DNA from: an uncultured Candidatus Saccharibacteria bacterium
GTDB lineage: Bacteria > Patescibacteriota > Minisyncoccia > Phycocordibacterales > UBA9973
Reading direction: 5' to 3'
Assembly (NCBI GenBank): GCA_964580855.1
Contig: CAZOLF010000001.1
Coordinates: 1 to 52,676, forward strand
Length of the DNA: 52,676 nucleotides
A program made the position numbers and the translations under genes. The notes beneath the pieces are model-generated. The model was not told the origin of the DNA and did no database searches. It saw nothing but the letters and a program-made list of their open reading frames with translations. Positions 781 to 52,676 of the stretch are shown in pieces; position 1 is the stretch's first letter; each line of letters starts with the position of its first letter.

Positions 781-841
781 AAAAGGGGATTAGTCACCCC
801 TAGAAAAAGCCTTGGTTACACATCTGCTAAGGCTTTTTTTA
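781..841. terminator. Two tandem hairpins; bidirectional intrinsic terminator at the xerC 3' end
   Basis: Hairpin 1: aggg(g) 784-788 pairs with cccct 797-801. Hairpin 2: aaaagcctt 805-813 pairs with aaggctttt 829-837. A T-run follows on the + strand and A-runs (U-tracts on the - strand) precede. Confidence 0.6.
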
Positions 842-1759: not shown

Positions 1760-1808
1760 ATATGTCGCACAATAATTGTAACATAAAAACATAAGAGAGG
1801 CTTGGGGC

Positions 1809-1837
1809 TTGCAAAAAAATATAATGTGTGCTAATAT
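1809..1837 (+). promoter_or_regulatory. Sigma70-like promoter of rpsO (leaderless type)
   Basis: TTGCAA (1809-1814), 17-nt spacer, then TGC-TAATAT (-10 at 1832-1837). The ATG at 1845 lies 7 nt after the -10. Confidence 0.5.
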
Positions 1838-1844
1838 ATGTCCT

Positions 1845-2111
1845 ATGTTAAAAGCAAAGAAAAAGGCAAATATTGTAAAGAAAAACCAAATCCACGATAA
1901 GGATACAGGTAGTCCTGAAGTGCAAATTGCTATTATCAGCGAGCGAATCGATGAGCTTGCGATACACCTAAAGAAGCACAAGAAGGATAACCATTCTCGC
2001 CGAGGACTTATCAAGATGGTTGCAGACCGAAGAAACCATTTGAAATATTTAGAAAAGAAAGACAAGACACGCCACGAGACAGTTACAAAGAAAATAAAAA
2101 CCGTAGCATAA
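1845..2111 (+). CDS. rpsO: 30S ribosomal protein S15
   Basis: ORF 1809..2111 trimmed to [69 protein letters not shown]. Typical S15 length and motifs ([15 protein letters not shown]). Confidence 0.9.
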
Positions 2112-2149
2112 ATCAAAACATCTCGATTAGTCGAGATGTTTTGATTTTG
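2111..2149 (+). terminator. Intrinsic terminator after rpsO
   Basis: Perfect 16-bp stem: aatcaaaacatctcga (2111-2126) pairs with tcgagatgttttgatt (2131-2146), loop ttag, T-rich tail. Confidence 0.75.
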
Positions 2150-25762: not shown

Positions 25763-26539
25763 ATGCCAACATCAGAAAAAATAACTCCACAACAAGACAC
25801 TAATCCTCGAAAATCCGAAGGACGAATTTATGAAGATTATACAAACAACAAACTACAGATTGTTGACGATTTTGGGAAAATGCAGGCAAATCTCAAAGCT
25901 TTGATTGAAAAGAAGAGATCAGCAGAACAAGAAGCAAACAAAGCTTTACCTGAAGATAAGGACGAAGAACAAACAGTAGAGGATACCCCAGAAAAATCTG
26001 CCAAAAAAGAAGAAGAAAAGATAGAAGTTACCCCAAAAGAGGAGCCTCCAAAAATGATTACCTTCGCAGACCAGAAAATAGAGGAGGAATCGATCAAAGG
26101 ATTTTCTGAATCTATAAAACCAGAGATTTTAAAAGAAGAAGTCCTAAATAGTATACAAAAAGTTTTACTTGAAAATAATAAAAAAACTAAAGCGTCTCTT
26201 ACTGCATTTACTTTCAGACGAGGCAAGAATACTTATGCCATCGAAGCCGAGATGAAGATTAGTAAGAAACTTCTTCCAGCAATGAGTGTATCAATGGAGG
26301 CAGGAATTTTTAACAAAGGTGGAAATATTGAAATAGAAAATCCTGAACTTAGTGGAGTGATGATAAAAAAAGAAACTCGAAATTTTATTAATGAAATTTT
26401 CCAAAAGATAATACCACAACTCAAACAATCTCTCGAAGAGAAGATTCGAGTCGAACACCCTGGAGCAGAAATCAAATTCATGAATATAATCAATGAAAAA
26501 TTAGAAATCAATTACGAAATAGAAAAAAATTCTAATTAA
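25763..26539 (+). CDS. Hypothetical Lys/Glu-rich protein, no signal peptide
   Basis: 258 aa. The N-terminal half is E/K/P low complexity and the C-terminal ~110 aa look globular. First gene of the block. Confidence 0.7.
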   Translation: MPTSEKITPQQDTNPRKSEGRIYEDYTNNKLQIVDDFGKMQANLKALIEKKRSAEQEANKALPEDKDEEQTVEDTPEKSAKKEEEKIEVTPKEEPPKMITFADQKIEEESIKGFSESIKPEILKEEVLNSIQKVLLENNKKTKASLTAFTFRRGKNTYAIEAEMKISKKLLPAMSVSMEAGIFNKGGNIEIENPELSGVMIKKETRNFINEIFQKIIPQLKQSLEEKIRVEHPGAEIKFMNIINEKLEINYEIEKNSN

Positions 26540-26544
26540 ACAAA

Positions 26545-29160: not shown

Positions 29161-29189
29161 AAATTAAAGCAGTTGAAAAATAAATTATA

Positions 29190-29771
29190 ATGAAGAAAGA
29201 AAAGCCCCAAAAACCAAACCCAGAACTAAATTCTTTAAATGAAAAGAAAGAGGAAATAACTGCACATTTTTATAATACATATATTGGCCCTTTGCAATGG
29301 ATGATTGAGCAAAAGAAGAAACAGGAAACCAAAGCTCATATAGAAGAGGTAAACAAAATAAAAGAAGAAATTGAGCAAGCTCGAGATAATGAGTTGCGAA
29401 GTGATCCTCTGAATTCCGAATTTGCCGACAAGCCAAAAACTAATGAATCTGACAAGGTACATAAAACAAAAGCTGATATCTACTTTGCCAACCCCATAAA
29501 ACACCTAGAGGGGATACTAGCCCAAGCCAACAAACAACTAAGTAAAGAAAAATCTCGCACCATGGCCGAAGAAGTTATCAAAAAATATTCCCCAATACTA
29601 CAAAGAGTTAGAGAGATAAATTTAAAATATGACAATATGTATGTAGAAGCAGTGGAAAGCCAGAAACTTACAGCAAAAGAAGCAGCCGCAATATTGACTG
29701 AACTCGAAAGGATAGGACCAGAAATAAGAAAGTCGATAAAAGAAGTGGAGAAGAAAAATTTGCAAAAATAA
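29190..29771 (+). CDS. Hypothetical Lys/Glu-rich protein, no signal peptide
   Basis: N-terminus NPELNSLNEKKEEITAHFYNTYIGPLQWMIEQKKKQE aligns without gaps to the N-terminus of ORF 26545. Confidence 0.7.
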   Translation: MKKEKPQKPNPELNSLNEKKEEITAHFYNTYIGPLQWMIEQKKKQETKAHIEEVNKIKEEIEQARDNELRSDPLNSEFADKPKTNESDKVHKTKADIYFANPIKHLEGILAQANKQLSKEKSRTMAEEVIKKYSPILQRVREINLKYDNMYVEAVESQKLTAKEAAAILTELERIGPEIRKSIKEVEKKNLQK

Positions 29772-29821
29772 GTCAACACCCCAGATCGTGCTTTAAGGCA
29801 CTATCTGGGGTGTTGACTTTC
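29772..29821 (+). terminator. Intrinsic terminator splitting the Lys/Glu-rich block into two transcription units
   Basis: Perfect 15-bp stem: gtcaacaccccagat (29772-29786) pairs with atctggggtgttgac (29803-29817), followed by ttt. Confidence 0.75.
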
Positions 29822-29841
29822 ATTTACAAGTGTTAGATAAT
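29813..29841 (+). promoter_or_regulatory. Sigma70-like promoter overlapping the terminator's 3' arm
   Basis: TTGACT (29813-29818), 17 nt, then GATAAT (29836-29841), within TGTTAGATAAT (compare TGTTAGAAT at 18743 and 35174). Confidence 0.45.
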
Positions 29842-29908
29842 ATAAAGCGTTCATAATAATCACTAAAAGATTACACTAAATTAATATATAATATTGGTAC
29901 ATAATAAT

Positions 29909-31153
29909 ATGGCAAAAGAACAACAACCTAAAAGGAAGTGGTCCCCAGAGGAGATAAAGCAAATCATCAATGATGGTGGTGTGTTTAAAGGCAAAGAATT
30001 GAGTTCAGCTGAACTTGAAGAAGCCTTGAACTTGTCTAAAGTTTACGAGGCAGAAGCCCTCGCAGAAGCAGAAGAAAAATTCATAGAAGATACAAAAGAA
30101 AATGAGCAGGAAGAAAACAAAGCTCCAAAAGAATCAAAGAGACAAAAGAAAATCCGCGAACTAGAAGAAAAACTTGCCAATTTAACCCCAGAACTTACTG
30201 CTCTCAAACTCGAACAACAAGCTGACCTAGAAAAGATAGAGGAACTCAAAAGAAAAATCCAAGAGCAAAAGGCGAGTGGTGCACCACTTACTCCGGCAAC
30301 TCCAGAACCGAACCCCGTAGCAAAAACAGGCAACAAAGCAGAGGAAACATATGGATATGAAGATACAAGAACTCCCCGAGAAATATATTTAGATCAATCC
30401 TCAAAAAGAGCGGAGCAGAGCTTTGGCAAAAACTGGGAAGGTATCAAACAAGTGGACAACCACTACGAAGCATTTTATTATCCAGAAAAGGAACTCAGTG
30501 GAAGAAGCATTGAGCCTATTTTAATACATGGATCAACCACGGAGGAAGTATATTATAAATTAAAAGATAGATACGATGCAGAGTGGAGATTGCTTGCCGG
30601 CCAAGGACCAAAAATACTAGAAGACTTGAAAAAAATAGGGAAAGAAAGATCAGAAAAAATCGCAAAGTCTAATGCGCGCGTTATGCCAATACGATGGATT
30701 CTAGGCCAAGCTAAAAAAGCAAAAGAGAAGACTAACCAACAAATTAATAAAGAGCAAGATATTAAAGTAAATGAGGCTGAGTACCCATTTATGTATTTTG
30801 CGTATGACAAAATAAATCCAAAACTTCAAATCTACCCCCGCGACTTTACAAACAAAAATGGGGAAGATCCCGAATACATGTCTGGTATGATTTTTTCCAC
30901 AGCATACACGGATGCTCCAATCAATAAAAAAGTGGTAGAGGCAAATGATATTGTAGAATTTAACCCGCTAGGATTCTTTGTAGTAAGAGATAAAAGATCA
31001 AAAGAAGGTGAGCAATATGGCGTTGTTGGACCAGATGGAACTCTCCTTACAAATAAAATGGACCTCGAAAGTGCCAAAGCTTTCCTTAAAGACGAAGTAC
31101 TCGAGTATCGGAATAAATTAAAAGAAGAGTTTTTGCAAAAACAAGTTGATTAA
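29909..31153 (+). CDS. Hypothetical Lys/Glu-rich protein with a C-terminal globular domain, no signal peptide
   Basis: ORF 29894..31153 (TTG start) trimmed to ATG 29909 (MAKEQQPKRKWSPEEIKQII...). Confidence 0.75.
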   Translation: MAKEQQPKRKWSPEEIKQIINDGGVFKGKELSSAELEEALNLSKVYEAEALAEAEEKFIEDTKENEQEENKAPKESKRQKKIRELEEKLANLTPELTALKLEQQADLEKIEELKRKIQEQKASGAPLTPATPEPNPVAKTGNKAEETYGYEDTRTPREIYLDQSSKRAEQSFGKNWEGIKQVDNHYEAFYYPEKELSGRSIEPILIHGSTTEEVYYKLKDRYDAEWRLLAGQGPKILEDLKKIGKERSEKIAKSNARVMPIRWILGQAKKAKEKTNQQINKEQDIKVNEAEYPFMYFAYDKINPKLQIYPRDFTNKNGEDPEYMSGMIFSTAYTDAPINKKVVEANDIVEFNPLGFFVVRDKRSKEGEQYGVVGPDGTLLTNKMDLESAKAFLKDEVLEYRNKLKEEFLQKQVD

Positions 31154-31184
31154 ATTAATCCTTATTAATTAATATATAAACTAT

Positions 31185-34100
31185 ATGGCAGAAAAAACAC
31201 CAAAATCAAAAGAAGAAATCGAGCTTGAAAATTTGCAAAAAATAGTTGCAGACAGGGCAAAGACTATCGGCAAGAAAGAAACAGATGTCCACAAAACAAC
31301 TATTGAACTCAACAAACTAAAGAGAGAAGAGAAGAAGGAAAATCCTCCAGAAAAGATTGCCGAGGAAGCTCTGGAAGCACTCAAGAATGAAATGATAAAT
31401 GCCCGAAATGAATACGGCACAAAGAAAGTAAACTACGATAAAACAGTGAGCGGAATAAAGAGTGCAATGCACAAACTTGGAAGCTTTTTGGGTCTGCCTA
31501 AAAATCAAAATTATGATATCGTGCACAAGGCCGAGCAAGTGTATTACGACAAAGCTCGAACATATCTTGATGCATTTACAGACAATCTCCAAGCCGAACA
31601 TTTGGAAAAAACATTTGGAAGCGATGAAGACAAAGCAAAATCTCGCGCAGAAGTAGACCAGAAGGTTGCACAAGAGGAAGCCCTTTATAAGAAACTTCGC
31701 TTTGATAAAAAGGATGACATGTTCCAAGAATCAACAGAACAAAGAGCAGATGCGATGGATGCGAAAGATATAGCAGAAGGAAAAGAACCTAAGAAAGGAA
31801 ACTTCTTGAAAAATTTGTGGGCAGGATTGCGGAGTGGAGCCAAAAAAGGAATTACTGAAGGTATGGATGGTGAAGCCCCTGTAGATGGTGAAAATGAAGA
31901 AGAAAAAGGTAAAAAGAAAAAGAAAGGCAAGGAGGAATTGCCTCCTGTACGCATACCAGAAGCCGAGCTTGAAACCCTCCGTGGTGAGATAGATGCTCTT
32001 CGTGCAGACTACAATGTTAAGCAATTTACTTACGATCAAAAAAATAATTTAATAACTAGGTTTACTGGTAGACTTTTTAATGCATTGGGGGTAAACACAG
32101 ATTACAAAGAAGTAGATGAAGCAAAAGAAGCCTACTTCGAAAAAGCAAAAGAATATGTGGAGAAGTTTACTTCTGACAAAAAAGCTCAGCATTTGGAACA
32201 AACATTTGAAACCGAAGATGCACAAATCACATCTCGAATGCTGACAGAAGATGCAATAGAGGCAGAAGTAGCAAAATTCAAGAAGTTGAAATTCGAAAAA
32301 GCATCGGAAGAATACCAGAAGATGCTTGATGAACGTCATGCGAACCTCGAGAAGAAGGATGCAGAAGCTGGCACTCCAGGCAAAAGACCAGGTGTACTCC
32401 TAAAAGCACTCGGGGTAGTTGGCAGAACATTAGGAACAGGAATGGATTTCTATAAAGCGATGGGAGACTGGGGATTCAATATATATACAATGCGAGACAA
32501 GTCCAACTTGCCAAGCAAAGAAGAAATAGATGCTTTACTAGCAGATGCAAAAACTAATAAGGATGAAGCAAAAAGACTAAAAGGCGAGGCTAGAAATGCA
32601 ACAGGTGCAGACAAAGAGAATCTAGAAAGAGACGCTGAAGTTTTGGAAAAAACAGCAAAGACTCTCGAAGAACAAGCCAAGGGTAAGATAGTTTTCCAAT
32701 ATAAATTTGGACAACTCGTTCGAAACCTTGGTTTTGGAGCACTAACAGGAGTAGGATTCGTAAGTGTAGCATCTGTGGGGACTCGAATAATTCGTGGTGT
32801 TGCAATACAGATGATTTCATCAAAAGTGATCAATAATCTTGAAAAGAAAAATGCTGTTCAAATGATTGCTTTTGAAGAACAAAGAGCCGAAATCGAACAG
32901 AAGTTTGCTCAAGATCAAAATGAGGAAGAGCACAATCATGCACTCCGACTTTTGGATGAAGCTATTAGTAAGGTGAAGTCCCGACATGGCTACAAACGAT
33001 TTGCAGTCCTAGGATTATCAATGCTTGCCAACTATGGTTCTGCAAAACTAGGAGGTGATGCCTTGCTTGAAAAGGGTATTGATTATACAAAGTCTGGTAT
33101 TCTTGGCATGTTTAGTGGAGATACAGGTGAGGCAACTCCAACAGAAACAACCACAACAGAAACAGAAGAAACTAAAACACCAGAAAAGACAAACAAACCT
33201 GTAGGTCCTAGACTAAAAGATACTGCTCAAGCAGTAGACCCAGACACAGGTAAACTTATTCCAAATCCAGTTACTATCCAAGACAGCACAGCAACAGATT
33301 CTTTGAACTCTGGAATTGGAGGGCAAGACACAACTTCAACTGATACTATTAAATCTGGAATCGGAGCACAAGATAGTACATTAAATGATACTCTAAAAAA
33401 TCCTATTGCTGGACAAGATACAACAGTACAAGACACATTAAAAAATATTAAAAATGGTATTGGCTCTAAAGATACTATTGGTTATGATACAACACAAGTT
33501 ATCAAGCCAATCATAAATCAAGATACAACTGGATATGATACGACACAGGTAATCAAGCCGATAATGAACGGCCAAGACACCACTGGATACGACACAACAA
33601 AGATAATTAAACCGATTATATCTCAAGATACTACTGGCTATGATACAACTCAAGTGGCAAAACCAATTATCTCTGGGCAAGATTCAACATCTGTTGATCC
33701 TACAAACACTGGAGGCACTAAATTGGAACAAGATGCTGGTAGTAACCCAGACAATGCAACAGAAGATCTTCCTCCACACAAAGCTATCGAACCAATCAAA
33801 GTCAGTAGTGAAGGAGCAGGAGCTATGATTCAAGATTTGAAACAAGCATTGGAGAAAGAGTACCCAGATCCAGCAACACGCCCAGAAAATATTGATCATA
33901 TAATCAAAACTCCACTTTGGACTTTGGCACAAGAATGGGGAATGTTTAACCCTGAAAATGCAAAAGAAAGTATGTTTGTATTAGAAGGTTCAACTATAAG
34001 TGTTGATGAAAACGGAGTGGTAAGTATCCACGACATCGGCAAGGGCGATGATACAATCATTTCTGGAGAAAATAATGTGAAGTGGCATGAAGGAAGAATG

Positions 34101-34784
34101 TTTGATTCCGATCACAGTGGAGCTCGAGCATCTGAATCTGGAGCCGGAGTTAAGGGTACAGAATCTACCGAGAGCGGTTCTGGAAGTGGAGATCCTCTAG
34201 ATTACACTCCTCCTGATGAAAGTGAATTTTATCAAGATGGCGCTGAAAATAATACAGAAGGCGAAAGTGCACCACTGGAAGAGACCCAGAAACCTAGCAC
34301 ATCTACATGGGAAGATCTAAACAAACAAGAATCAAATGTTGATAATTTCCACCAAGGAAGTAACTTCTATACAGAAGGCTCAACTAACACAAGCCCTGAT
34401 ATCGACCGACCACTAAAAACAATCAACCCAGCTGACGTCCCAGGAACTCCAGAATATACAGCAAGCCACCCACCCGTACCACAAGGAGACCCATTTGAAA
34501 ATACACCACAATTCAAGCAAGAGAACTTGAAGTTAATCAACGAAATCTTCAGTGACAGAACAAATGGAATTTCAGATGAGAATGGTCTATTTACTGAAAG
34601 CTGGAGGAAATTGAAGGATTTGAAGATTATTGATGTGGTAGATAGAGGTAGTCAATATCCTATCTATGTACAAGATGAAATCGATAAAATCGTAAAGTTA
34701 AATTATGAAACTGGTGTGCCGTACGGAGGAAAAACAGTTGAAGAATATTTGGCAAGTGTGGCCAAGAATAAGCTTGGAAAATAA
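31185..34784 (+). CDS. Hypothetical 1199-aa protein: duplicated coiled-coil module, two central hydrophobic segments, Thr/Asp/Gln-rich tandem repeats, C-terminal globular region
   Basis: Uninterrupted 3.6-kb ORF. Hydrophobic segments at about 32725-32815 (LGFGALTGVGFVSVASVG) and about 32998-33055 (FAVLGLSMLANYGSAKLGG). Confidence 0.85.
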   Translation: MAEKTPKSKEEIELENLQKIVADRAKTIGKKETDVHKTTIELNKLKREEKKENPPEKIAEEALEALKNEMINARNEYGTKKVNYDKTVSGIKSAMHKLGSFLGLPKNQNYDIVHKAEQVYYDKARTYLDAFTDNLQAEHLEKTFGSDEDKAKSRAEVDQKVAQEEALYKKLRFDKKDDMFQESTEQRADAMDAKDIAEGKEPKKGNFLKNLWAGLRSGAKKGITEGMDGEAPVDGENEEEKGKKKKKGKEELPPVRIPEAELETLRGEIDALRADYNVKQFTYDQKNNLITRFTGRLFNALGVNTDYKEVDEAKEAYFEKAKEYVEKFTSDKKAQHLEQTFETEDAQITSRMLTEDAIEAEVAKFKKLKFEKASEEYQKMLDERHANLEKKDAEAGTPGKRPGVLLKALGVVGRTLGTGMDFYKAMGDWGFNIYTMRDKSNLPSKEEIDALLADAKTNKDEAKRLKGEARNATGADKENLERDAEVLEKTAKTLEEQAKGKIVFQYKFGQLVRNLGFGALTGVGFVSVASVGTRIIRGVAIQMISSKVINNLEKKNAVQMIAFEEQRAEIEQKFAQDQNEEEHNHALRLLDEAISKVKSRHGYKRFAVLGLSMLANYGSAKLGGDALLEKGIDYTKSGILGMFSGDTGEATPTETTTTETEETKTPEKTNKPVGPRLKDTAQAVDPDTGKLIPNPVTIQDSTATDSLNSGIGGQDTTSTDTIKSGIGAQDSTLNDTLKNPIAGQDTTVQDTLKNIKNGIGSKDTIGYDTTQVIKPIINQDTTGYDTTQVIKPIMNGQDTTGYDTTKIIKPIISQDTTGYDTTQVAKPIISGQDSTSVDPTNTGGTKLEQDAGSNPDNATEDLPPHKAIEPIKVSSEGAGAMIQDLKQALEKEYPDPATRPENIDHIIKTPLWTLAQEWGMFNPENAKESMFVLEGSTISVDENGVVSIHDIGKGDDTIISGENNVKWHEGRMFDSDHSGARASESGAGVKGTESTESGSGSGDPLDYTPPDESEFYQDGAENNTEGESAPLEETQKPSTSTWEDLNKQESNVDNFHQGSNFYTEGSTNTSPDIDRPLKTINPADVPGTPEYTASHPPVPQGDPFENTPQFKQENLKLINEIFSDRTNGISDENGLFTESWRKLKDLKIIDVVDRGSQYPIYVQDEIDKIVKLNYETGVPYGGKTVEEYLASVAKNKLGK
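31362..32390 (+). repeat. Intragenic duplication of a module of about 140-170 aa
   Basis: ...AEHLEKTFGSDEDKAKSRAEVDQKVAQEEALYKKLRFDKK... aligns with ...AQHLEQTFETEDAQITSRMLTEDAIEAEVAKFKKLKFEKA.... The preceding ALEALKNEMINARNEY aligns with ELETLRGEIDALRADY. Confidence 0.6.
33480..33689 (+). repeat. Four in-frame tandem repeats of 51-54 nt
   Basis: GYDTTQVIKPIINQDTT, GYDTTQVIKPIMNGQDTT, GYDTTKIIKPIISQDTT, GYDTTQVAKPIISGQDST. Degenerate QDTT/QDST copies extend upstream from about 33290. Confidence 0.85.
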
Positions 34785-37123: not shown

Positions 37124-37912
37124 ATGATACACAAAGCCAAAAAATCCATGGGTCAAAATTTTCTCAAATCTAAGTCCGCGCTCGACGCAATGTGCAAGTC
37201 GAGTGACCTTGTGGAAAGTGATGTCGTGTTGGAGATCGGCCCAGGTAAGGGCGCGTTGACTGAATATTTATTACGGGCAGTTAATAAAGTAATCGCCGTG
37301 GAAAAAGATTATAACTTATTTGAAATTCTTTCGGAAAAATTCAAAGATGAAATTGCAAGTGGGCGCCTGATAATGATACAAGGGGATATCTTGGAATTTG
37401 ATCCGCAACAAGCAGGTTTAGGAAAATCCGGATATAAAATCATCGCTAACATTCCATACAATATAACAGGTGCAATTATAAAAAAATTTCTAACAATTGC
37501 AAATCACCCGGAGAGTATGACACTACTCGTACAGAAAGAAGTTGCCGAGAGGATTGTGGCTCGTGATGGCAAAGAGAGTATTCTGTCTATAAGTGTCAAA
37601 GCCTTCGGCACACCAAAATACATAATGAAGGTAGGGAAAAAGTTTTTTAGCCCCGCTCCCAAAGTTGATTCCGCAATTATAACAATTAAAAATGTTTCCA
37701 AAGACACTTTTAAGAAAGTTGGTGAGGAAGAAAAATTCTTTCAGATACTAAAAGCCGGATTCGCACACAAAAGAAAAGTGCTGATTAAAAATTTAGAGGA
37801 TGCTCTGCCGAAAAATAAAATTGCCGAATTTTTTGAAAAAGAAAAATTAAATCCTAAAGCAAGAGCTGAAGATATAAAGCTCGGAACTTGGCTCGAACTT
37901 TTAAATTTTTAG
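37124..37912 (+). CDS. rsmA: 16S rRNA (adenine1518/1519-N6)-dimethyltransferase
   Basis: GQNFL, the SAM motif LEIGPGKGALTEYL and NIPYNITG are typical of KsgA/RsmA. Confidence 0.9.
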   Translation: MIHKAKKSMGQNFLKSKSALDAMCKSSDLVESDVVLEIGPGKGALTEYLLRAVNKVIAVEKDYNLFEILSEKFKDEIASGRLIMIQGDILEFDPQQAGLGKSGYKIIANIPYNITGAIIKKFLTIANHPESMTLLVQKEVAERIVARDGKESILSISVKAFGTPKYIMKVGKKFFSPAPKVDSAIITIKNVSKDTFKKVGEEEKFFQILKAGFAHKRKVLIKNLEDALPKNKIAEFFEKEKLNPKARAEDIKLGTWLELLNF

Positions 37913-38298
37913 AAAGGGGAGGAGCCAAAAGAAGAGATAGTCCCTCCGCTAACATCAAGGGTCTCCTTACAATCTGGTGGTGTAATTACACATTCTCCCC
38001 CAGAGGAGCGTCGTCCCATAATGAACCTCCCTGCACTTATCGCACGATTTTTAAAAGCTTTAGTTTCTCCGGGAACATACAAATAGTTTCCAGGAGAACG
38101 ACCACCTTTAATTATTACCTGAAATCCTCCGCTACACTCACAAGGAGTCATTTTGTCGACTTTCCCTGCGTATAATTGGCTTTTGGAATTAACAAGTTTT
38201 GCTCCAGCCTGAGAGGGACGAGACGGCAACATGAACAACCCAAATAAAGCTGTAATGAAAATAGCTGTAATGAAAATATTTTTATTAGTATGTTTCAT
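37909..38298 (-). CDS. Small secreted 4-Cys protein
   Basis: Signal peptide MKHTNKNIFITAIFITALFGLFMLPSRPSQA. Mature part contains CEC...C...C. Converges on rsmA with a 4-nt overlap. Confidence 0.55.
   Translation of the reverse strand: MKHTNKNIFITAIFITALFGLFMLPSRPSQAGAKLVNSKSQLYAGKVDKMTPCECSGGFQVIIKGGRSPGNYLYVPGETKAFKNRAISAGRFIMGRRSSGGECVITPPDCKETLDVSGGTISSFGSSPF
38248..38277 (-). repeat. Perfect 15-bp tandem duplication inside the signal peptide
   Basis: agctgtaatgaaaat occurs twice, encoding IFITA-IFITA on the minus strand. Confidence 0.9.
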
Positions 38299-45658: not shown

Positions 45659-45660
45659 TA

Positions 45661-45699
45661 AAAACCATCCCCCACCAAATTGGTGGGGGATGGTTTTTA
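45661..45699 (+). terminator. Strong intrinsic terminator
   Basis: Perfect 17-bp stem: aaaaccatcccccacca (45661-45677) pairs with tggtgggggatggtttt (45681-45697). Confidence 0.85.
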
Positions 45700-45750
45700 A
45701 AATTTAAGTTGAAAACTATTGAATAAAGCATTTAAAAGATATAAAGTAAA

Positions 45751-45759
45751 TGCTATAAT
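45751..45759 (+). promoter_or_regulatory. Extended -10 element of leaderless type for the T4SS-like operon
   Basis: TGC-TATAAT lies 8 nt before the ATG at 45768. The -35 is weak. Confidence 0.45.
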
Positions 45760-45767
45760 ACAAAGGC

Positions 45768-48554
45768 ATGAAGAGACTAGGTTCGTACATTCTTATATTA
45801 CTTATATTAGTGAATATCTTCGCACCTTTTAGTGTATTTTTAGACGAGAATAAAAATATAAATATTGAAAAGACCATCGCGAATGCTGCAAGCCTTGCAG
45901 ACCCTAAAGATGAAGCAATGAGGCAAGTTGCAAAGAAAGAATGTCTTGAAACAGAACCTGACCCAAAAGGCCCACCTGTAGAATTTTGTCTGCAAGCAAG
46001 ATATGAAGCAAACGGGACCAAGGTTGTAATAAAAGCTTACACCATAGGGATTAACCGGGGAGGAAAAGATACTTACTTCGTAAAAATTGAGATCAAAGAT
46101 AGCCTTCAAAAGATAGTAAGAACTCTTGTTACTACTTTTGGATCAAGCGAAATAGATGAAAAAGATGTATCCTCCGATCAAGGCATCGAAGCTAATTACA
46201 AAAATGCTGACAAAACTATTCCGTGGGATGGACGAATGTTTACATCTGATGAGATTGAATTAAATGCAAATGAAAGCTACAGCTTCGATGTATATGTCCA
46301 AAAAAGTGACATGAACAGCACAACATGGACGAAAACTTTTCCATTAAAATTAACGATTGGGGGAAGTGGAACCAGCTCATCTGGAAGCACTGATGTCACA
46401 ACTTCTGCTCCTTCCGGCGAAGAAGATGTACTTCCAGATTGTGTATTCGCTCATCCTGTGGACGGAACGATTATGGGTTGTGTTGCTCAAGTAATATACT
46501 ATGCGGTCTTTGTGCCGACATCGTGGTTATTTGGAGCTTCTGGAATGTTCTTTGATTATATTTTTGCTTATTCAATCAATGACACTACATACAGATCCCA
46601 ATTCGTAACAGAAGGTTGGGGCATAGTTCGAGATTTGTGCAATATTTTCTTTATATTTATACTTTTATATGCAGCCTTCAAAATGATTCTTTCGATCGGA
46701 CATGACTCCAAAGGAATTATCATAAGTGTTATTATTATCGGCCTCTTGATCAATTTCAGTCTTTTTGCTGGACAAGTAATGATTGACGCTTCCAATATTT
46801 TAGCCAGATTATTTTACAACTCTGAGGCTCTCAAGGTTACGGTTACAGGGGACACAGGCAAGGTGATGAAGGGAGGTGCTGTTGTGTATGAAGAAGGGCG
46901 AGGAGGCCATATTCCAATATCCGCTGCAATTATAAACAAGGTAAACCCACAAAATATAATTATTGGGGCAAGAAAAATTTCGCAAGTCACTCTTGATGAT
47001 GGCCAAGTTGGAAGTGGATCTATAGATACAAGTGGAAAAACAAATATAAATACAGATCAAGCCAGCATGGGTGCTGGGTCATTCCTCCTTATTACTGTAC
47101 TTGCGACCATAATCAACGTTGTCGGTATTGTGGTATTCCTTTCTGTCGGGTTAATGTTCGTCGGAAGAATTATTGGTCTATGGTTTGCAATGATTGTCGC
47201 TCCGCTTGCATTCCTAAGCTATACAGTACCCAACATGCGTGATATGGAATTCGTCGGTTGGAAAAAGTGGTGGCCAGAAACTCTCAAGCTTGCATTCCTT
47301 GCTCCGATATTTATGTTCTTTATGTATTTGATGATAATGTTCCTTGAAAATGGTTTCAAGGTTATCGAAAAGGCGAGTGCTGGACCAAACTGGGCTCTCG
47401 AAACTATGATCCCATTTATCTTCATAATGGTATTCCTATTGATGGCAAAAAAGGTGGCCAAGGGATTATCCGGAACAATCGGGCAAACTATTACAAAAGG
47501 TGTAGCTACGACTGGAGCATTGGCGCTCGGAGGAGCGGCGATTGGTACTGGGTTACTATTACGCAAAGGAATTGGTCAAACTATGGCCAGAGCTTCTCGT
47601 GGAGAAACTTTAACGCAAAGATATGAAGCTGGAACAAGTAAGACACTCTTCGGGAAAGGGGTTGGTTGGGCTGGTTCTAAACTAGGCTTAGGTAAAGTAT
47701 TTGGTAATACTTATGATGTAAATACCAGAACAATAGATAGTGGACTAGGAGGTAAACTAAACAGAACACAGCATGCTGTTGAACATGCGGACCATGCAAA
47801 ACAGGAATTAAAGGAAACAAAAGAAAAAGCACACATTACAGTTGACGATCATATGCTTTCAGGAGAGGATGCACAAGCAATGCAGAGAGCCTATGGTAAA
47901 ACTAAAAAGAGTGAATTTGAGGCTGATATTCGAAAAGGTAATGTCAAAGGAATTGACCCTAAAACTGGTGAACGAACAAAAGATATAAGCGAAGACGGTT
48001 ACAAAGCTGCAAACAGAGCCCAAGCCAGTGTAGATGCTGAAGCAGAATACCGAACAGAAAATAAGATTCCTGCTGGCAAAAAACTAACTGCTGATCAGAA
48101 CAAACAAGTTGAAAAAGCAACGGAGAATAAATTAAGTAGTGATTATAATACAAAAGTTTTGAAAGTTGAGCTCGACAAGAAAATTGCTACGGACTTCAAA
48201 AATGTTCTTGACACGGCAAGAGCAGGAGCAAACGTATTTGATAGAGTTATTGCAGGTGCAAATAAATATAGCTTCGATGCAAGAAAACTATCGGAAGTAA
48301 AAGCAGACAAGCTCGCTCATCCTCTAGTGAAGATGGGTGCAGGCGCTATCGCAGGTATTGCTATGGGTGTTCGTATGGGAATGAATCATGGAATCGGAGC
48401 AGACCAAGGTAAAGCCACAGGTGATGCAATGAAAGATCTAGGTAATCTAATCAAAGATTCATTGAAAAATCTAAAAGTAGAAGTTAAGATCCCTGAAAGT
48501 AGCGGAGGCGGACATGATGACCACGGAGGTGGCGGGGGAGGTGGACATCACTAA
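45768..48554 (+). CDS. VirB6/TrbL-like polytopic membrane protein with large N-terminal ectodomain and charged C-terminal tail (928 aa)
   Basis: Signal/anchor, beta-rich domain of about 200 aa, about 7-8 TM segments (VIYYAVFVPTSWLFGASGMFFDYIF..., IFFIFILLYAAFKMIL..., IIGLWFAMIVAPLAFLSY...), Lys/Glu-rich tail ending SSGGGHDDHGGGGGGGHH. Topology and position next to PrgI/VirB4 suggest a VirB6 analogue. No sequence search was run. Confidence 0.55.
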   Translation: MKRLGSYILILLILVNIFAPFSVFLDENKNINIEKTIANAASLADPKDEAMRQVAKKECLETEPDPKGPPVEFCLQARYEANGTKVVIKAYTIGINRGGKDTYFVKIEIKDSLQKIVRTLVTTFGSSEIDEKDVSSDQGIEANYKNADKTIPWDGRMFTSDEIELNANESYSFDVYVQKSDMNSTTWTKTFPLKLTIGGSGTSSSGSTDVTTSAPSGEEDVLPDCVFAHPVDGTIMGCVAQVIYYAVFVPTSWLFGASGMFFDYIFAYSINDTTYRSQFVTEGWGIVRDLCNIFFIFILLYAAFKMILSIGHDSKGIIISVIIIGLLINFSLFAGQVMIDASNILARLFYNSEALKVTVTGDTGKVMKGGAVVYEEGRGGHIPISAAIINKVNPQNIIIGARKISQVTLDDGQVGSGSIDTSGKTNINTDQASMGAGSFLLITVLATIINVVGIVVFLSVGLMFVGRIIGLWFAMIVAPLAFLSYTVPNMRDMEFVGWKKWWPETLKLAFLAPIFMFFMYLMIMFLENGFKVIEKASAGPNWALETMIPFIFIMVFLLMAKKVAKGLSGTIGQTITKGVATTGALALGGAAIGTGLLLRKGIGQTMARASRGETLTQRYEAGTSKTLFGKGVGWAGSKLGLGKVFGNTYDVNTRTIDSGLGGKLNRTQHAVEHADHAKQELKETKEKAHITVDDHMLSGEDAQAMQRAYGKTKKSEFEADIRKGNVKGIDPKTGERTKDISEDGYKAANRAQASVDAEAEYRTENKIPAGKKLTADQNKQVEKATENKLSSDYNTKVLKVELDKKIATDFKNVLDTARAGANVFDRVIAGANKYSFDARKLSEVKADKLAHPLVKMGAGAIAGIAMGVRMGMNHGIGADQGKATGDAMKDLGNLIKDSLKNLKVEVKIPESSGGGHDDHGGGGGGGHH

Positions 48555-48571
48555 TAGATAATTAAAATAAT

Positions 48572-49639
48572 ATGGACCAAACACAATTACAACAAAAAAT
48601 AGCTGAATACTTTGCAAAATTGCCTCCAAATGCGCAAGCTATGTTTCAGAGCATGGGGTGGCTCGATGCTTTGGAAATTATTAGCCAAAAGTATTCTCTC
48701 ACTCAAACCCAAAAAGAATCGCTAGGCACAGAGACAACACTACTACTACTAGGAATAATTCACCCAGATGAATACACAAAGTTTCTAATAAATGGACTCT
48801 CTATACCAAAAGGAATAAGCGAGAAGATTATGATAGATGTAAACACAAATATATTGAATGAATTCAAAGATGAATTAGAAAATACTTATAACAAAAATGC
48901 TGAAGAATTAGCGGAAAAGGAATACGGTGGGAAGATCACGTTGGATGAAAGATTTAAAAGTCTTCCCGAGGAAGTTCAAGATGCAATCCTTAATTCCAAT
49001 TACCAAATCAAACTTGCCGAAATTGCAACACGAAATAACTTGAGTATAGCGCAGATGGCAATCCTGGAAAAAACTACCAACAAAGTCTTGTTGGCTATAA
49101 TTCACCCAAATGAATTCAACAAAGCTTTAAGCACAGAATTGAATTTACCTCAAGATAAAATCAATACGCTTATAGATAGTGTGAATGAAGAAGTAATCAA
49201 AAGTATCCGAGCAATCCTTTTGGGCCACGCAGAAGAAAAGAAGGATACTCTATCAGAGGAGCCTCCTGTCCCTCTTCCGCCACCTTCTAGTTTCAAACCA
49301 GCCCCAAAGGTAGAGCAAATCAACACTACCCCGACATCTCCACTAATCGGCAATTATCAGACTCCTATAGCAAATGATCCTCCAGTGCCTAAAGTAGCCA
49401 CAACTCCAGAAAAGGTTTTTGCAGAAAGTAATATTGAAATCCTACCTCAAAACCCAATGATGGGCGCAAATAGTATGATAGGCCAAAGACTTTCTACTCC
49501 TTTTGCCCAAGCTCCGACAATAAGCACAAATACCCCAGCCCAAAGTTCTTCGCCTACTGCAACATTAGAATTCAAAGAAGACCCGGCAAAGAAGACTCAA
49601 GACCCAAAAAGAGATCCTTATCACGAAGCAATAACTTAA
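48572..49639 (+). CDS. Hypothetical protein with an internally duplicated helical domain and a Pro-rich tail
   Basis: KLPPNAQAMFQSMGWLDALEIISQKYSLTQTQKESLGTETTLLLLGIIHPDEY... aligns with KSLPEEVQDAILNSNYQIKLAEIATRNNLSIAQMAILEKTTNKVLLAIIHPNEF.... C-terminus is EPPVPLPPPSSFKPAPK.... Confidence 0.7.
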   Translation: MDQTQLQQKIAEYFAKLPPNAQAMFQSMGWLDALEIISQKYSLTQTQKESLGTETTLLLLGIIHPDEYTKFLINGLSIPKGISEKIMIDVNTNILNEFKDELENTYNKNAEELAEKEYGGKITLDERFKSLPEEVQDAILNSNYQIKLAEIATRNNLSIAQMAILEKTTNKVLLAIIHPNEFNKALSTELNLPQDKINTLIDSVNEEVIKSIRAILLGHAEEKKDTLSEEPPVPLPPPSSFKPAPKVEQINTTPTSPLIGNYQTPIANDPPVPKVATTPEKVFAESNIEILPQNPMMGANSMIGQRLSTPFAQAPTISTNTPAQSSSPTATLEFKEDPAKKTQDPKRDPYHEAIT

Positions 49640-49642
49640 CAT

Positions 49643-50047
49643 ATGCAATTCAAAGTTCCACAATTTATAGATATTGAGGACAAATTATTTGGCCCTTTAA
49701 CCTTCAAACAATTTGCTTACCTTGCAGGAGGTGGCGGTATGATCTATGTATTGTATAAACTTTTACCTTTCTTTATTGCTATTATTCTGATTGTTCCAGT
49801 AGGATTATTTGCCCTTGCTCTAGCATTCTACAAAATAAATGAAAAGCCTTTTCTTTATTATCTCCAAGCAGGGATAACATACGCTACAAAAAGCAAATTA
49901 TATGTATGGAGACAAAAGTTTAAAAAGGTAGAAGCAAAAGATGAAGCAGAGGTTGAAAAAGTGTCCTATATCCCAAATGTTTCATCTAATAGAATCAGGG
50001 ATTTATCATGGAGTTTAGATGTTTTGGATAAAAACAAAGATAAATAG
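49643..50047 (+). CDS. PrgI-family (VirB3-like) small T4SS membrane protein
   Basis: MQFKVPQFIDIEDKLFGPLTFKQFAYLAGGG followed by two TM helices. This is the characteristic PrgI-family N-terminus and size (134 aa), and the gene lies just upstream of virB4. Confidence 0.7.
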   Translation: MQFKVPQFIDIEDKLFGPLTFKQFAYLAGGGGMIYVLYKLLPFFIAIILIVPVGLFALALAFYKINEKPFLYYLQAGITYATKSKLYVWRQKFKKVEAKDEAEVEKVSYIPNVSSNRIRDLSWSLDVLDKNKDK

Positions 50048-50103
50048 CTACGAGAAATAGAATAAACTTACCAATTTAGTGAAGAACCGTGTATAATTAA
50101 AAT

Positions 50104-50760
50104 ATGAAGCTTAATGCGCGTAGAACTCAAGAATTCGTACCGATAAAAGAAATACGAGATGGTATCATAATACTCAAAGACGGGGGACTCCGTTGTGTAC
50201 TTATTGCATCTTCTATCAACCTGTCGCTAAAAGCCGAGGAAGAGCAGAGGGCAATCATAAACCAATTTCAATCATTTTTAAATGGGCTCGATTTTACTAC
50301 TCAGATATCGGTACAATCAAGACGTTTAGACATAAGACCGTATTTATTAAGACTGGAGAATCGCATGCAGGAACAAGTTGAACCTTTGATCAAAACTCAA
50401 ACAAAAGAATATATCGAATTTATCCGAAGGTTTACCGAAGAGGTAAACATAATGACTAAGAGCTTTTTTGTTGTAGTCCCATATAGCGGAGATTCATCTT
50501 CGAATAAAAAAAGTGGAGTTGAAAAACTTCTTGACCTTGGAAGCAGAAGTGAGAAGATGAAAGGAAAGACCAAAAAGGAAGAAGACATGGTCAGCTTCGA
50601 GGAGAAACGCTCCCAACTTGACCAGCGCATCAATGTTATCGTCGAAGGATTGGCAGGGCTTGGAGTTCAGGTTTCGCAATTAAATACAGAAGAAATTATC
50701 GAGCTTTTTTATAAAACATTTAATCCTGGAGATATAAGTCAGGGGATAAAATTGTCATGA
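50104..50760 (+). CDS. VirB4 N-terminal-domain-like protein (CagE/TrbE/VirB-type), translationally coupled to the ATPase ORF
   Basis: TQEFVPIKEIRDGIIILKDGGLRCVLIASSINLSLKAEEEQRAIINQFQSFLNGLDFTTQISVQSRRLDI follows the pattern of the first ~70 aa of long VirB4/TrbE proteins. The stop overlaps the next start (ATGA at 50757-50760). Confidence 0.45.
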   Translation: MKLNARRTQEFVPIKEIRDGIIILKDGGLRCVLIASSINLSLKAEEEQRAIINQFQSFLNGLDFTTQISVQSRRLDIRPYLLRLENRMQEQVEPLIKTQTKEYIEFIRRFTEEVNIMTKSFFVVVPYSGDSSSNKKSGVEKLLDLGSRSEKMKGKTKKEEDMVSFEEKRSQLDQRINVIVEGLAGLGVQVSQLNTEEIIELFYKTFNPGDISQGIKLS

Positions 50761-52598
50761 GTATATTTTCAAATATTTTTGGTTCAAAAAGTAAAATAAC
50801 TACCCAATCCCAAAAGGGAGCTTTGCCGATCCTACCCCAAGAAATATACCAAGCCGCAACATTGGAACTCCAAGATATTATCGCTCCGTCTGCTTTACAA
50901 ATCACTCCAAAGTCGCTAAACCTCGGAGATAAGATTGCACGCACATTTTTTGTCATCTCTTATCCACGATACCTTACAGACAACTGGTTTTCCCCGATCA
51001 TCAATTTGGACAAAATCTTTGACGTTTCCATATTTATTCACCCGATCGAAACAGCAGAAATCTTACATGTTTTCCAAAATAAAGTTGCCGAAGTTCAAAG
51101 CCAGATCTCAATCCGTGAATCCAAAGGTATGGTTCGCGACCCAATGCTCGACACTGCATATAAAGATCTCGAATCTTTGCGTGATAGCCTAATGCAAGCG
51201 CAAGAAAAGATGTTTGAAGTTGGATTATACATCACAGTATATGCTGATAATGAAACAGAGCTATTTCGAACAGAAAATGAAATCAAATCACTCCTTGAGT
51301 CAAAAATTATTTATCTAAAACCGGCTCTATTCCAACAAGAAGAAGCATTCAAAACGGTTATCCCCCTTGGTACAGACCTCCTTGGTATCCACCAAAAGCT
51401 AAATACTGAGCCACTTTCAAGTGTATTTCCTTTTGTATCTTTCGACCTGACTTCCGATAACGGGATTCTTTATGGTGTTAATCGCCACAATTCAAGCTTA
51501 ATCCTCTTTGATAGATTTTCATTGCCAAATTACAACTCTATTACCTTTGCGACTTCAGGTGCTGGTAAATCTTATGCGACAAAATTAGAAATCCTTCGTA
51601 CCTTAATGTTTGATACAGAGGTAATCGTGATTGATCCGGAACGTGAATACGAATTTTTAGCCGAAGCGGTTGGTGGAAGATATTTCAATATCTCACTTTC
51701 AAGTGAGCACCATATCAACCCATTCGACCTGCCTATCCCAAGCGCCGATGAAACGGGGGCTGATGTTTTGCGTTCAAACACAATCAACTTGGTCGGATTA
51801 TTCCGTATTATGCTTGGGGGCCTAACTCCAGAAGAGGATTCAATCATAGATCGCGCTATCACTGAAACATACGCACTCAAAGATATTACATCAGAATCAG
51901 ACTTCACAAATATTGAACCCCCACTCCTTTCTGATTTTGAAGTTGTGCTTGCTGGGATGGAGGGGAGTGAGTCGATTATTTCGCGTTTAACAAAATTTAC
52001 AAAAGGGTCCTGGGCATCATTCCTCAACCAACCTTCCAACATAGATATCAACCGCAAGCTTGTTGTGTTTTCAGTCCGAGATATGGAAGATGAGTTGAAA
52101 TCCGTCGCTATGTATATAGTCACACACTATATATGGAATGCGATCCGAAAGAATATCAAGAAAAGACTCCTTGTTGTAGATGAGGCTTGGTGGATGATGA
52201 AGTCTGAAGATACAGCATCTTTCCTTTTCTCTATAGCGAAACGCGGACGTAAATATTATCTAGGGCTTGCTACTATTACTCAAGATGTGGGGGACTTTAT
52301 GAAAAGCCAATATGGAATCCCAATTGTTACCAACTCTTCAATCCAACTACTCTTGAAACAATCACCTTCGACAGTCGATCTCCTGCAAAAAACTTTTAAT
52401 CTCACTGATGAAGAAAAGTACCTCCTTCTCGAAGCCAATGTTGGGGAAGGAATCTTCTTTGCGGGACTCAAGCACGTAGCCATAAAAACTATAGCAAGCT
52501 ACACAGAAGACCAAATCATCACTTCAGACCCATCACAATTACTTGCAATCAAAAAGGCCAAGGAAGAACTTGTTGAAAACGGTAATCAAGCCTCTTAA
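50757..52598 (+). CDS. virB4: VirB4-family type IV secretion/conjugation ATPase
   Basis: IAPSALQITPKSLNLGDKIARTFFVISYPRYL (VirB4 middle domain), Walker A TSGAGKSY (51558-51572), Walker B LLVVDEAWWMM (52178-52189), GLATITQD. 613 aa. Confidence 0.85.
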   Translation: MSIFSNIFGSKSKITTQSQKGALPILPQEIYQAATLELQDIIAPSALQITPKSLNLGDKIARTFFVISYPRYLTDNWFSPIINLDKIFDVSIFIHPIETAEILHVFQNKVAEVQSQISIRESKGMVRDPMLDTAYKDLESLRDSLMQAQEKMFEVGLYITVYADNETELFRTENEIKSLLESKIIYLKPALFQQEEAFKTVIPLGTDLLGIHQKLNTEPLSSVFPFVSFDLTSDNGILYGVNRHNSSLILFDRFSLPNYNSITFATSGAGKSYATKLEILRTLMFDTEVIVIDPEREYEFLAEAVGGRYFNISLSSEHHINPFDLPIPSADETGADVLRSNTINLVGLFRIMLGGLTPEEDSIIDRAITETYALKDITSESDFTNIEPPLLSDFEVVLAGMEGSESIISRLTKFTKGSWASFLNQPSNIDINRKLVVFSVRDMEDELKSVAMYIVTHYIWNAIRKNIKKRLLVVDEAWWMMKSEDTASFLFSIAKRGRKYYLGLATITQDVGDFMKSQYGIPIVTNSSIQLLLKQSPSTVDLLQKTFNLTDEEKYLLLEANVGEGIFFAGLKHVAIKTIASYTEDQIITSDPSQLLAIKKAKEELVENGNQAS

Positions 52599-52676
52599 AA
52601 CATTGTTTATATCCTCATATTTTAATATAATAGGGGAATGGTAGTTAAATACTATTTAAAGCTTGTCATTGTGGTA

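Follow-up and report, generated by a model that had tools for sequence, protein, structure and literature searches.

A relaxase-free chromosomal type IV secretion locus of the kind described in Patescibacteria

The type IV secretion systems (T4SSs) of the Patescibacteria, or Candidate Phyla Radiation (CPR), are the closest described relatives of the locus analysed here, which lies at one end of a 52,676-nt stretch of contig CAZOLF010000001.1 (assembly GCA_964580855.1; this whole stretch is called the window). Wang et al. (2023, Cell; PMC10633639) described a pilin-containing T4SS cluster, devoid of recognisable coupling or relaxase proteins, that is essential for epibiotic growth of Southlakia epibionticum, and its essential genes include those for the pilins, TrsD, PrgI and VirB6. 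A homologue of the type IV coupling protein (T4CP) in that organism (PMC12102498) and its comEC (PMC12857230) are non-essential. The Patescibacteria T4SS is the first to be shown essential for its own bacterium (PMC10633639; PMC12857230). Across 3,035 Patescibacteria genomes, Quinonero-Coronel et al. (2025, Microb Genom; PMC12102498) found that 2,425 VirB4 proteins form one clade nested in MPF_FATA, with TrsD as the commonest partner, VirB3/PrgI and VirB6 close by, and relaxases nearly absent; VirD4-like genes were present in most genomes, usually far from virB4, and the locus of Paceibacteria lay near ksgA, rnpA, dnaA and dnaN. A FEMS nomenclature review of 2025 (PMC12857230) treats these systems as a recognised newcomer and speculates that the T4SS and its pilus provide a conduit for signal exchange or for uptake from the host. 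For a cultivated member of the phylum, a preprint of June 2026 describes uptake of host RNA and tubes that penetrate the host; the tubes are suggested to be T4SS pili, and the mechanism of uptake is called unresolved.

The T4SS genes in the window occupy positions 45768-52598, and the window ends 78 nt past the virB4 stop codon. They almost certainly constitute an intact, chromosomal, relaxase-free T4SS of Paceibacteria-type (Parcubacteria/Nomurabacteria-like) Patescibacteria, and very probably one that descended from monoderm MPF_FATA conjugation machinery and has lost its conjugative role. That this identity, the non-conjugative status and a role at the host interface all hold together is likely, at a lower level of confidence. 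The locus shares with the Patescibacteria clade its VirB4 relatives, the adjacent TrsD and VirB3 genes, the ksgA/dnaA context and the lack of a relaxase, and is assigned to it on these features. A preliminary description of the window had proposed a Firmicute-type (MPF_FATA-like) core in a CPR-like cell, probably non-conjugative, and the relatives, the genomic context and the co-divergence reported below support this proposal.

The 613-aa product of the last T4SS gene in the window matched the NCBIfam model conju_CD1110 at 375.8 bits (curated cut-off 325) over profile positions 182-734 of 752, and also Pfam P-loop_TraG (E 8e-23), AAA_10 and DUF87. Both Walker motifs were intact (A, ATSGAGKS, around residue 266; B, LLVVDE, residue 471), and the nearest solved structure was the VirB4 C-domain 4AG5 (E 1.5e-38). 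The protein has more than 8000 database relatives, of which the best 120 were 85-100% identical to it, and the named relatives among the best matches were all from Patescibacteria, Paceibacterota or Nomurabacteria. Nearest relatives in the 75-90% identity range all came from metagenome-assembled genomes of Patescibacteria, Paceibacteria or Nomurabacteria. The preceding open reading frame (ORF), of 218 aa, had been described as resembling a VirB4 N-domain and is probably of TrsD type by profile matches at E 1e-9 to 1e-10. It matched NCBIfam TrsD/TraD (E 2.5e-9, 37 bits versus a curated cut-off of 200), positions 101-237 of VirB4_plasma (E 1.9e-10) and positions 2-128 of CD1110, every NCBIfam match falling under its curated cut-off, and its orthologue in one related locus (L081) carries PF26593 (TraC-like). 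For two VirB4 models the match spans the initial 130-140 positions, so that the TrsD-type and 613-aa proteins would together reconstitute a complete VirB4.

For comparison we used a sample of 80 related loci (L001-L080), picked by similarity of their VirB4 to that of the window. A separate TrsD-type gene of about 215 aa was found in 76 of the 80, and the VirB4 motor is therefore natively split into this TrsD-type protein and the ATPase, with no sequencing artefact involved. We rejected the possibility that VirB4 is frameshifted or a pseudogene, as the split with its overlapping start and stop is kept in 76 of these relatives. The 134-aa protein encoded further upstream passed the gathering score of Pfam PrgI (37.7 bits versus 27), matched TcpE at 26.4 bits, and showed one strong hydrophobic segment (residues 43-61) in a scan for transmembrane (TM) segments. 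Its gene was present in 75 of the 80 related loci, and in the window only the TrsD gene stands between prgI and virB4. The PrgI/VirB3-like protein and the VirB4 ATPase with Walker A and B motifs named in the preliminary description are thus both backed by significant matches to hidden Markov models, and its coordinates for the five ORFs were reproduced exactly.

The first and largest gene of the set encodes a 928-aa protein, for which the TM scan and an AlphaFold2 model built on 53 sequences indicated 6-7 TM helices. A signal/TM segment is followed by a beta-rich N-terminal exodomain (residues ~20-200, low confidence), a TM core (~234-590), a long helical domain rich in Lys, Gly and Ala, and a GGGHDDHGGGGGGGHH tail; the predicted local distance difference test (pLDDT) score exceeded 90 in the 6-7-helix core and in the helical C-terminal domain. 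When the model was compared with the PDB using Foldseek, the top three structures were TrwI/VirB6 of R388 and the fourth was DotA; the TrwI matches are statistically weak (probability 0.96-0.97 at ranks 1-2 and 0.57 at rank 3, E 0.1-0.34, TM-score 0.31-0.44). We also aligned the family with a profile of PrgH, the VirB6 of pCF10, made from nine plasmid genes that each lie directly upstream of prgI or a VirB4 gene. The hhalign comparison gave 93% probability and E 3.3e-7 over 139 columns, pairing window residues 435-571 with PrgH 123-266 (the last three TM helices) and including the invariant Arg of both families, and a second alignment gave 75% and E 2.5e-5. YidC controls in the same comparison reached 0.1-0.3%, and this was the sole pair to stand out in 104 comparisons (eight local families against 13 pCF10 proteins). 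On this remote evidence we accept the protein as an extended VirB6/PrgH-like component. The earlier designation as VirB6-like accordingly holds at the level of profile, fold and 6-7 TM helices, but not at that of the curated Pfam TrbL/VirB6 model, which gave no match at E <0.05 for the protein or its 44 homologues; one distant database relative scored 16.7 bits against a cut-off of 25.9. The protein ends (48497-48554) in SSGGGHDDHGGGGGGGHH, a Gly/His tail whose final GGGGH is also the consensus of the family alignment and which may bind metal.

The five genes follow a terminator and form one co-transcribed unit (Table 1). Their spacing is tight, with 17, 3 and 56 nt between successive genes and an ATGA start/stop overlap within the final pair. 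The terminator hairpin reads CCATCCCCCACC-AAATT-GGTGGGGGATGG at 45665-45693, has a GC-rich 12-bp stem and is followed by TTTTT. A simple terminator scanner missed it (45665-45698), and it was read from the letters instead; the strong terminator placed ahead of the operon by the preliminary description (at 45661-45699) is therefore present. It closes the upstream gene for a 1310-aa surface protein, and an A-run at 45660-45664 gives it a bidirectional look. A promoter-like site, a consensus match only, ends 8 nt ahead of the ATG at 45768, so that the mRNA of the VirB6-like gene would be leaderless or nearly so if the site is used. At the other end, an ORF starting at 52638 has a hydrophobic, signal-peptide-like N-terminus and occupies the slot that in relatives holds a secreted protein of about 330 aa. 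As it is cut by the window edge, the operon extends beyond 52676. The core had been called minimal; its five genes are as described, but the operon is incomplete in the window, and the minimal appearance is partly an effect of truncation.

Table 1. Coordinates of features in the window and of pilin-hydrolase genes in related loci
Feature	Position	Strand	Remarks
Tyrosine recombinase, the window's only recombinase	839-2116	-	43 kb from the T4SS, among sugar-metabolism genes
Two bitopic proteins (302 aa, 803 aa), each with an N-terminal TM segment	38396-41717	+	TM scan, synteny
Hypervariable 1310-aa surface protein, N-terminal TM segment	41726-45658	+	NCBIfam NF033662, 122.8 bits, 5 stretches
Intrinsic terminator	45660-45698	+	Stem 45665-45676 / 45682-45693, T-run 45694-45698; direct sequence reading
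Promoter-like site TTTAAA-17-TGcTATAAT (extended -10)	45731-45759	+	10/12 consensus matches, TG present
Extended VirB6/PrgH-like polytopic membrane protein (remote evidence), 928 aa	45768-48554	+	TM scan, AlphaFold2, Foldseek, hhalign
Soluble 355-aa protein, two ~90-aa helical domain copies	48572-49639	+	Between the VirB6-like gene and prgI
VirB3/PrgI-family small membrane protein, 134 aa	49643-50047	+	Pfam PrgI
Probable TrsD-type protein, free-standing VirB4 N-terminal domain, 218 aa	50104-50760	+	NCBIfam partial matches
VirB4 ATPase, 613 aa	50757-52598	+	Middle and C-terminal P-loop domains; NCBIfam, Pfam, PDB matches
Next operon gene, first 13 codons	52638-52676	+	Runs off the window end; begins MVVKYYLKLVIVV
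Pilin-hydrolase examples in relatives	L001:12906-14360, L007:12872-14281, L004:6558-8759, L081:20560-21714		Second gene after virB4

The non-conjugative status is suggested by the genes that surround the locus. Domain scans detected no relaxase or T4CP in any window ORF of at least 250 aa (oriT was not searched for), in keeping with the earlier statement that the 52 kb hold neither a relaxase nor a VirD4 coupling ATPase. As VirD4-like genes usually lie at a distance from virB4 in Patescibacteria (PMC12102498), the lack of a coupling protein holds only for the DNA in view; none is present in the window, but such genes are common elsewhere in genomes of this group. The 80 related loci share the order uvrD, ksgA, 302-aa protein, 803-aa protein, a variable giant protein, VirB6-like protein, 355-aa protein, PrgI, TrsD and VirB4. 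Downstream of virB4, 10 kb of sequence in the relatives held no relaxase, T4CP or integrase, and in about 60 related genomes the T4SS locus occupies the same place between ksgA and dnaA, with none of these three genes within 10 kb on either side. The preliminary description had noted that a relaxase, coupling protein and integrase just downstream would turn the locus into an ordinary integrative and conjugative element (ICE). The related loci run instead into jag-yidC-rnpA-dnaA-dnaN, which excludes that scenario for the lineage. The distant Xer-type gene, described as the only recombinase, is indeed the sole recombinase found and encodes a tyrosine recombinase.

We then compared protein identities over the same 1128 genome pairs for all proteins. 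Median identity was 79.6% for VirB4, 64.4% for DnaA, 55.9% for DnaN and 47.4% for YidC, a ranking that is fair on shared pairs, with a small bias possibly remaining from the choice of loci by VirB4 similarity. VirB4 identity correlated with that of DnaA, DnaN and YidC (Spearman 0.83-0.85; DnaA versus DnaN, 0.92). The other components evolve much faster, with median identities of about 59% for TrsD, 48% for PrgI, and 30% each for the VirB6-like and 355-aa proteins. Since VirB4 divergence tracks that of DnaA, DnaN and YidC, the locus belongs to the vertically inherited chromosome and is no mobile element. The pattern of VirB4 is that of a vertically inherited, strongly constrained core function, neither a mobile element nor a relic.

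All genes in the ~27 kb from 25763 to 52676 lie on the + strand, pointing at jag-yidC-rnpA/dnaA in relatives, and the same holds for L001 and L007. Should oriC have its usual location at rpmH/dnaA, the entire block, with the T4SS genes in it, would be transcribed head-on to replication. GC skew was uninformative for the replication origin, as it tracks the coding strand in the window, L001 and L007.

The lineage-specific 355-aa protein, encoded between the VirB6-like gene and prgI, had been described as carrying a duplicated domain, and the duplication is clear (27% identity over 88 aa, E 5e-9). The protein has a Pro-rich, low-complexity middle, and an alignment of 33 homologues shows nothing invariant except a C-terminal DPY[RH]E, which looks like a docking peptide. 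The DPY motif occurred in 64 genes, each of them the one that precedes prgI, and was absent from all other genes of the window and of L001-L080. The family diverges almost past recognition, yet always ends in DPY[RHK][EML] followed by 0-5 residues. No TM segment was found in the TM scan, no Pfam family, and no usable match in NCBIfam or among PDB sequences. Kinship of the repeat with a nearby DUF5663-like 102-aa ORF was ruled out (probability 0.1%).

In relatives, virB4 is followed by three conserved + strand genes, for a secreted protein of about 330 aa (cluster C1, directly after virB4 in 75 related loci), a VirB2-like pilin-domain protein of 300-700 aa and a protein of about 450 aa. After these come jag/khpB, yidC and rnpA, all three on the opposite strand, followed by dnaA and dnaN. 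Of 67 members of the family encoded by the second gene, 59 matched the PF18895 pilin model and 19 matched TrbC/VirB2. The pilin domain is N-terminal, and the same protein continues into a domain active on peptidoglycan, of a type that varies among genomes: NlpC/P60 (17), VanY (8), Amidase_5 (7), YkuD (5), M15_4 (3), SLT (3), Amidase_2 (2), CHAP (2) and 3D (1).

In the mechanism that we propose, VirB3 and VirB6 would hold a VirB4 hexamer at the membrane, and the system would work without a dedicated adjacent coupling protein or relaxase. VirB4 alone, as suggested by established T4SS biology, would energise pilin extraction and pilus assembly. The machine would build a VirB2-type pilus or tube, the pilin-hydrolase gene lying just downstream in relatives; this structure would touch and breach the envelope of the host cell, and the metabolically reduced epibiont would then exchange macromolecules with its host. 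We tentatively favour assembly of a pilus or contact tube as the core activity, because the locus is without a coupling protein or relaxase and, in Saccharibacteria, the T4CP homologue is dispensable and the pilins are essential. More tentative still is the direction of transfer, for which uptake from the host is favoured and effector export is the main alternative. The preliminary description had considered the function and substrates of CPR T4SSs unsettled, in agreement with the 2025 FEMS review (PMC12857230).

Several points weigh against this account of the locus. A T4CP or relaxase may lie elsewhere in the genome, as the negative result covers the 52-kb window and the 10-kb flanks in relatives. 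The essentiality data come from Saccharimonadia, a class different from that of the present lineage. The VirB6 assignment is remote: the Foldseek E value is just 0.1, and searches of Pfam, NCBIfam and PDB sequences gave no match for the 928-aa protein or its 44 homologues. The pilin-hydrolase gene is known from relatives, as the window stops short of it. No VirB8-like component was detected; comparison of PrgL with the 302-aa, 803-aa, C1 and C2 families by hhalign gave no link, with a single-sequence template of low sensitivity. Finally, the operon portion 45768-52598 contains no cell-wall hydrolase, the M23/LysM protein of the window being encoded 20 kb upstream on the other strand.

Some T4SSs are effector translocators, such as the 89K streptococcal system and the bacteria-killing system of Xanthomonas. 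An epibiont could likewise export cell-wall hydrolases, toxins or host-manipulating factors into or onto its host, an explanation that we judge unlikely, even as the best of those that compete with the pilus or contact tube. Wang et al. (PMC10633639) offer protein export, as coupling and relaxase proteins are absent; fast-swapping hydrolase domains occur two genes past virB4 in relatives, and the upstream genes encode large, fast-evolving proteins that are secreted or charged. However, cytoplasmic substrates normally need a receptor of the VirD4 type, of which none was found in or near the locus, and even the T4CP homologue of Saccharibacteria is dispensable (PMC12102498). Moreover, as the hydrolase domains are joined C-terminally to a pilin domain that carries a signal peptide, they are likelier to be Sec-dependent structural parts than effectors.

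Systems that rely on VirB4 only and have no T4CP include the DNA importers ComB and Ced. A dedicated importer of this sort, supplying the cell with nucleotides from host DNA or RNA and comparable with ComB of H. pylori and archaeal Ced, appears somewhat less probable than effector export. VirB4 does show a weak, generic similarity to CedB, but at 34.9 bits against a cut-off of 700 this reflects P-loop homology, and no CedA- or ComB-like partners were detected. ComM, which had been noted at 17168 and was confirmed there (17168-18739), and PNPase are both encoded in the window; ComM, however, lies 28 kb from the T4SS among housekeeping genes. The 2026 preprint, on a cultivated member of the phylum, shows both uptake of host RNA and tubes that enter the host, but gives no genetic link from uptake to the T4SS. 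In S. epibionticum, competence proceeds via type IV pili and comEC, and cells survive the loss of comEC, whereas the T4SS is essential (PMC12857230).

A more elaborate and rather improbable version would make the locus a feeding organelle, in which a VirB4 machine lacking a coupling protein and a VirB2 tube bearing a host-matched wall enzyme would pierce the host envelope and import host RNA or DNA as nucleotides, with the DPY[RH]E protein as a lineage-specific cytoplasmic VirB4/TrsD adaptor in place of VirD4. An ordinary or decaying ICE with its relaxase, T4CP and integrase beyond the window is very improbable, for although the set of PrgI, TrsD, VirB4 and PrgH-like proteins and the order prgH-prgI-virB4 are as in Gram-positive conjugative elements (pCF10) and the window stops so soon after virB4, the position between ksgA and dnaA is fixed in the related genomes with no mobility genes found in the flanks examined, no ORF is broken, VirB4 diverges in step with DnaA but at a lower rate, the sole recombinase is distant and set among sugar-metabolism genes, and the window has no tRNA gene, the commonest kind of integration site (att-type flanking repeats were not searched for).

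The remainder of the window is ordinary chromosome, encoding the tyrosine recombinase, GlmS, PGI, PNPase, ComM, the M23/LysM hydrolase, UvrD/PcrA and KsgA; no tRNA genes or Rfam matches were found anywhere in it. As in relatives, uvrD/pcrA and ksgA sit upstream of the T4SS genes. The 302-aa and 803-aa proteins, whose genes keep their place between ksgA and the T4SS across Paceibacteria, are candidate accessory components. The first has a topology compatible with VirB8 and a calcium-binding-like motif, DxDxDG...WEE...DP, and is syntenic in 38 of the 80 loci; the second has invariant Cys316 and Cys332, conserved Cys pairs and the motifs GGW, NNPxGF and TPG, and is syntenic in 47. Searches of Pfam, NCBIfam and PDB sequences yielded nothing usable for these two families or for the downstream families C1 and C2, the weak matches being a calmodulin-like one to the DxDxDG motif, a TolB-like one for C2 (E 0.0095) and coiled-coil noise. 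An AlphaFold2 model of the 803-aa protein (17-sequence alignment) was unusable at pLDDT 43. Comparison of the 302-aa, 803-aa, 355-aa, C0, C1 and C2 families with PrgD-PrgM, PcfB and PcfC of pCF10 by hhalign revealed no link to VirB8, VirB1 or T4CP.

The 1310-aa protein, whose gene lies between those for the 803-aa and VirB6-like proteins, contains low-complexity tracts rich in Gly, Thr and Ser and, by regular-expression search, acidic double-disulfide repeats (CxDGxDNDxD...C). It was detectable in just 8 of the 80 relatives. It is possibly an adhesin, associated with the T4SS by position only. Further upstream, five consecutive + strand ORFs at 25763-34784 (258, 871, 193, 419 and 1199 aa) are Lys/Glu-rich and apparently mostly of low complexity. 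They showed no TM segment and no Pfam match, and the AT skew of the DNA there reaches 0.36-0.38; L081 likewise has large unannotated ORFs between its M23/LysM and DUF5663 genes. In the gap between ksgA and the 302-aa gene, a 129-aa ORF on the - strand (37909-38298) has a clear signal peptide and overlaps a spurious-looking 95-aa ORF on the + strand.

The system was already described between 2023 and 2025 and is carried by nearly all Patescibacteria (CPR); the locus is a good example of it and no discovery. Its importance comes from the large part of bacterial diversity that the Patescibacteria represent and from the question of how they draw nutrients from their hosts. The window adds a clean example from Paceibacteria, with no new kind of system. 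Three testable leads, which are not findings, go beyond the literature: the pilin fused to interchangeable peptidoglycan-active domains, the DPY[RH]E tail, and the slower evolution of VirB4 relative to DnaA. The main text of the 2025 survey (PMC12102498), searched by term, gave no description of the fusion and no mention of the DPY[RH]E protein between VirB6 and VirB3 or of VirB4 conservation above that of DnaA, and a literature search for PF18895/T4SS_pilin returned no description of any of the three. The leads are properties expected of a core, housekeeping-like machine at the host interface.

Compared with known systems, the locus shows no essential difference from the T4SS of the Patescibacteria clade (PMC12102498; PMC10633639, SEML1_0006-0019). 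Both are chromosomal and relaxase-free, have no adjacent T4CP, and combine VirB4, TrsD, VirB3/PrgI and VirB6; both share the neighbourhood of ksgA, rnpA, dnaA and dnaN known from Paceibacteria, and VirB2-like pilins are encoded nearby (here in relatives). In Saccharibacteria the locus encodes six free pilins in an array, unlike the pilin-hydrolase fusion in relatives of the present locus.

Among the MPF_FATA systems of Staphylococcus and Enterococcus plasmids, the Trs system of pGO1/pSK41 and the Tra system of pIP501 have the same order of TrsC (VirB3-like), TrsD and TrsE (VirB4), with a separate TrsD, of which the 218-aa protein is the probable counterpart here. Unlike the locus here, they are plasmid-borne and conjugative, and possess a relaxase, the TrsK/TraJ coupling protein, the TrsG/TraG hydrolase and VirB8-like TraM/TraH, but no pilin. 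The pGO1 subclass has no recognisable VirB6 of the PrgH type (PMC12102498), whereas the present locus has one. The Prg/Pcf system of pCF10 (Enterococcus faecalis) has the same order of prgH (VirB6), prgI (VirB3) and prgJ (VirB4, CD1110 family). Its VirB4 is a single chain and its PrgH has 266 aa, in contrast to the split VirB4 and the 928-aa VirB6-like protein described here. PrgK hydrolase, VirB8-like PrgL, the PcfC coupling protein, the PcfG relaxase and the PrgB adhesin are extras of pCF10 that were not detected here, and pCF10 lacks a counterpart of the 355-aa gene that here separates VirB6 from VirB3. With the diderm MPF_T systems, R388 Trw and A. tumefaciens VirB, the locus shares a TM core fold resembling TrwI/VirB6 and a VirB4 homologous to TrwK, and its relatives share the VirB2/TrbC-type pilin domain. 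It differs from them in having no VirB7/9/10 outer-membrane core, VirB11, VirB5 or VirD4, and in belonging to a monoderm envelope.

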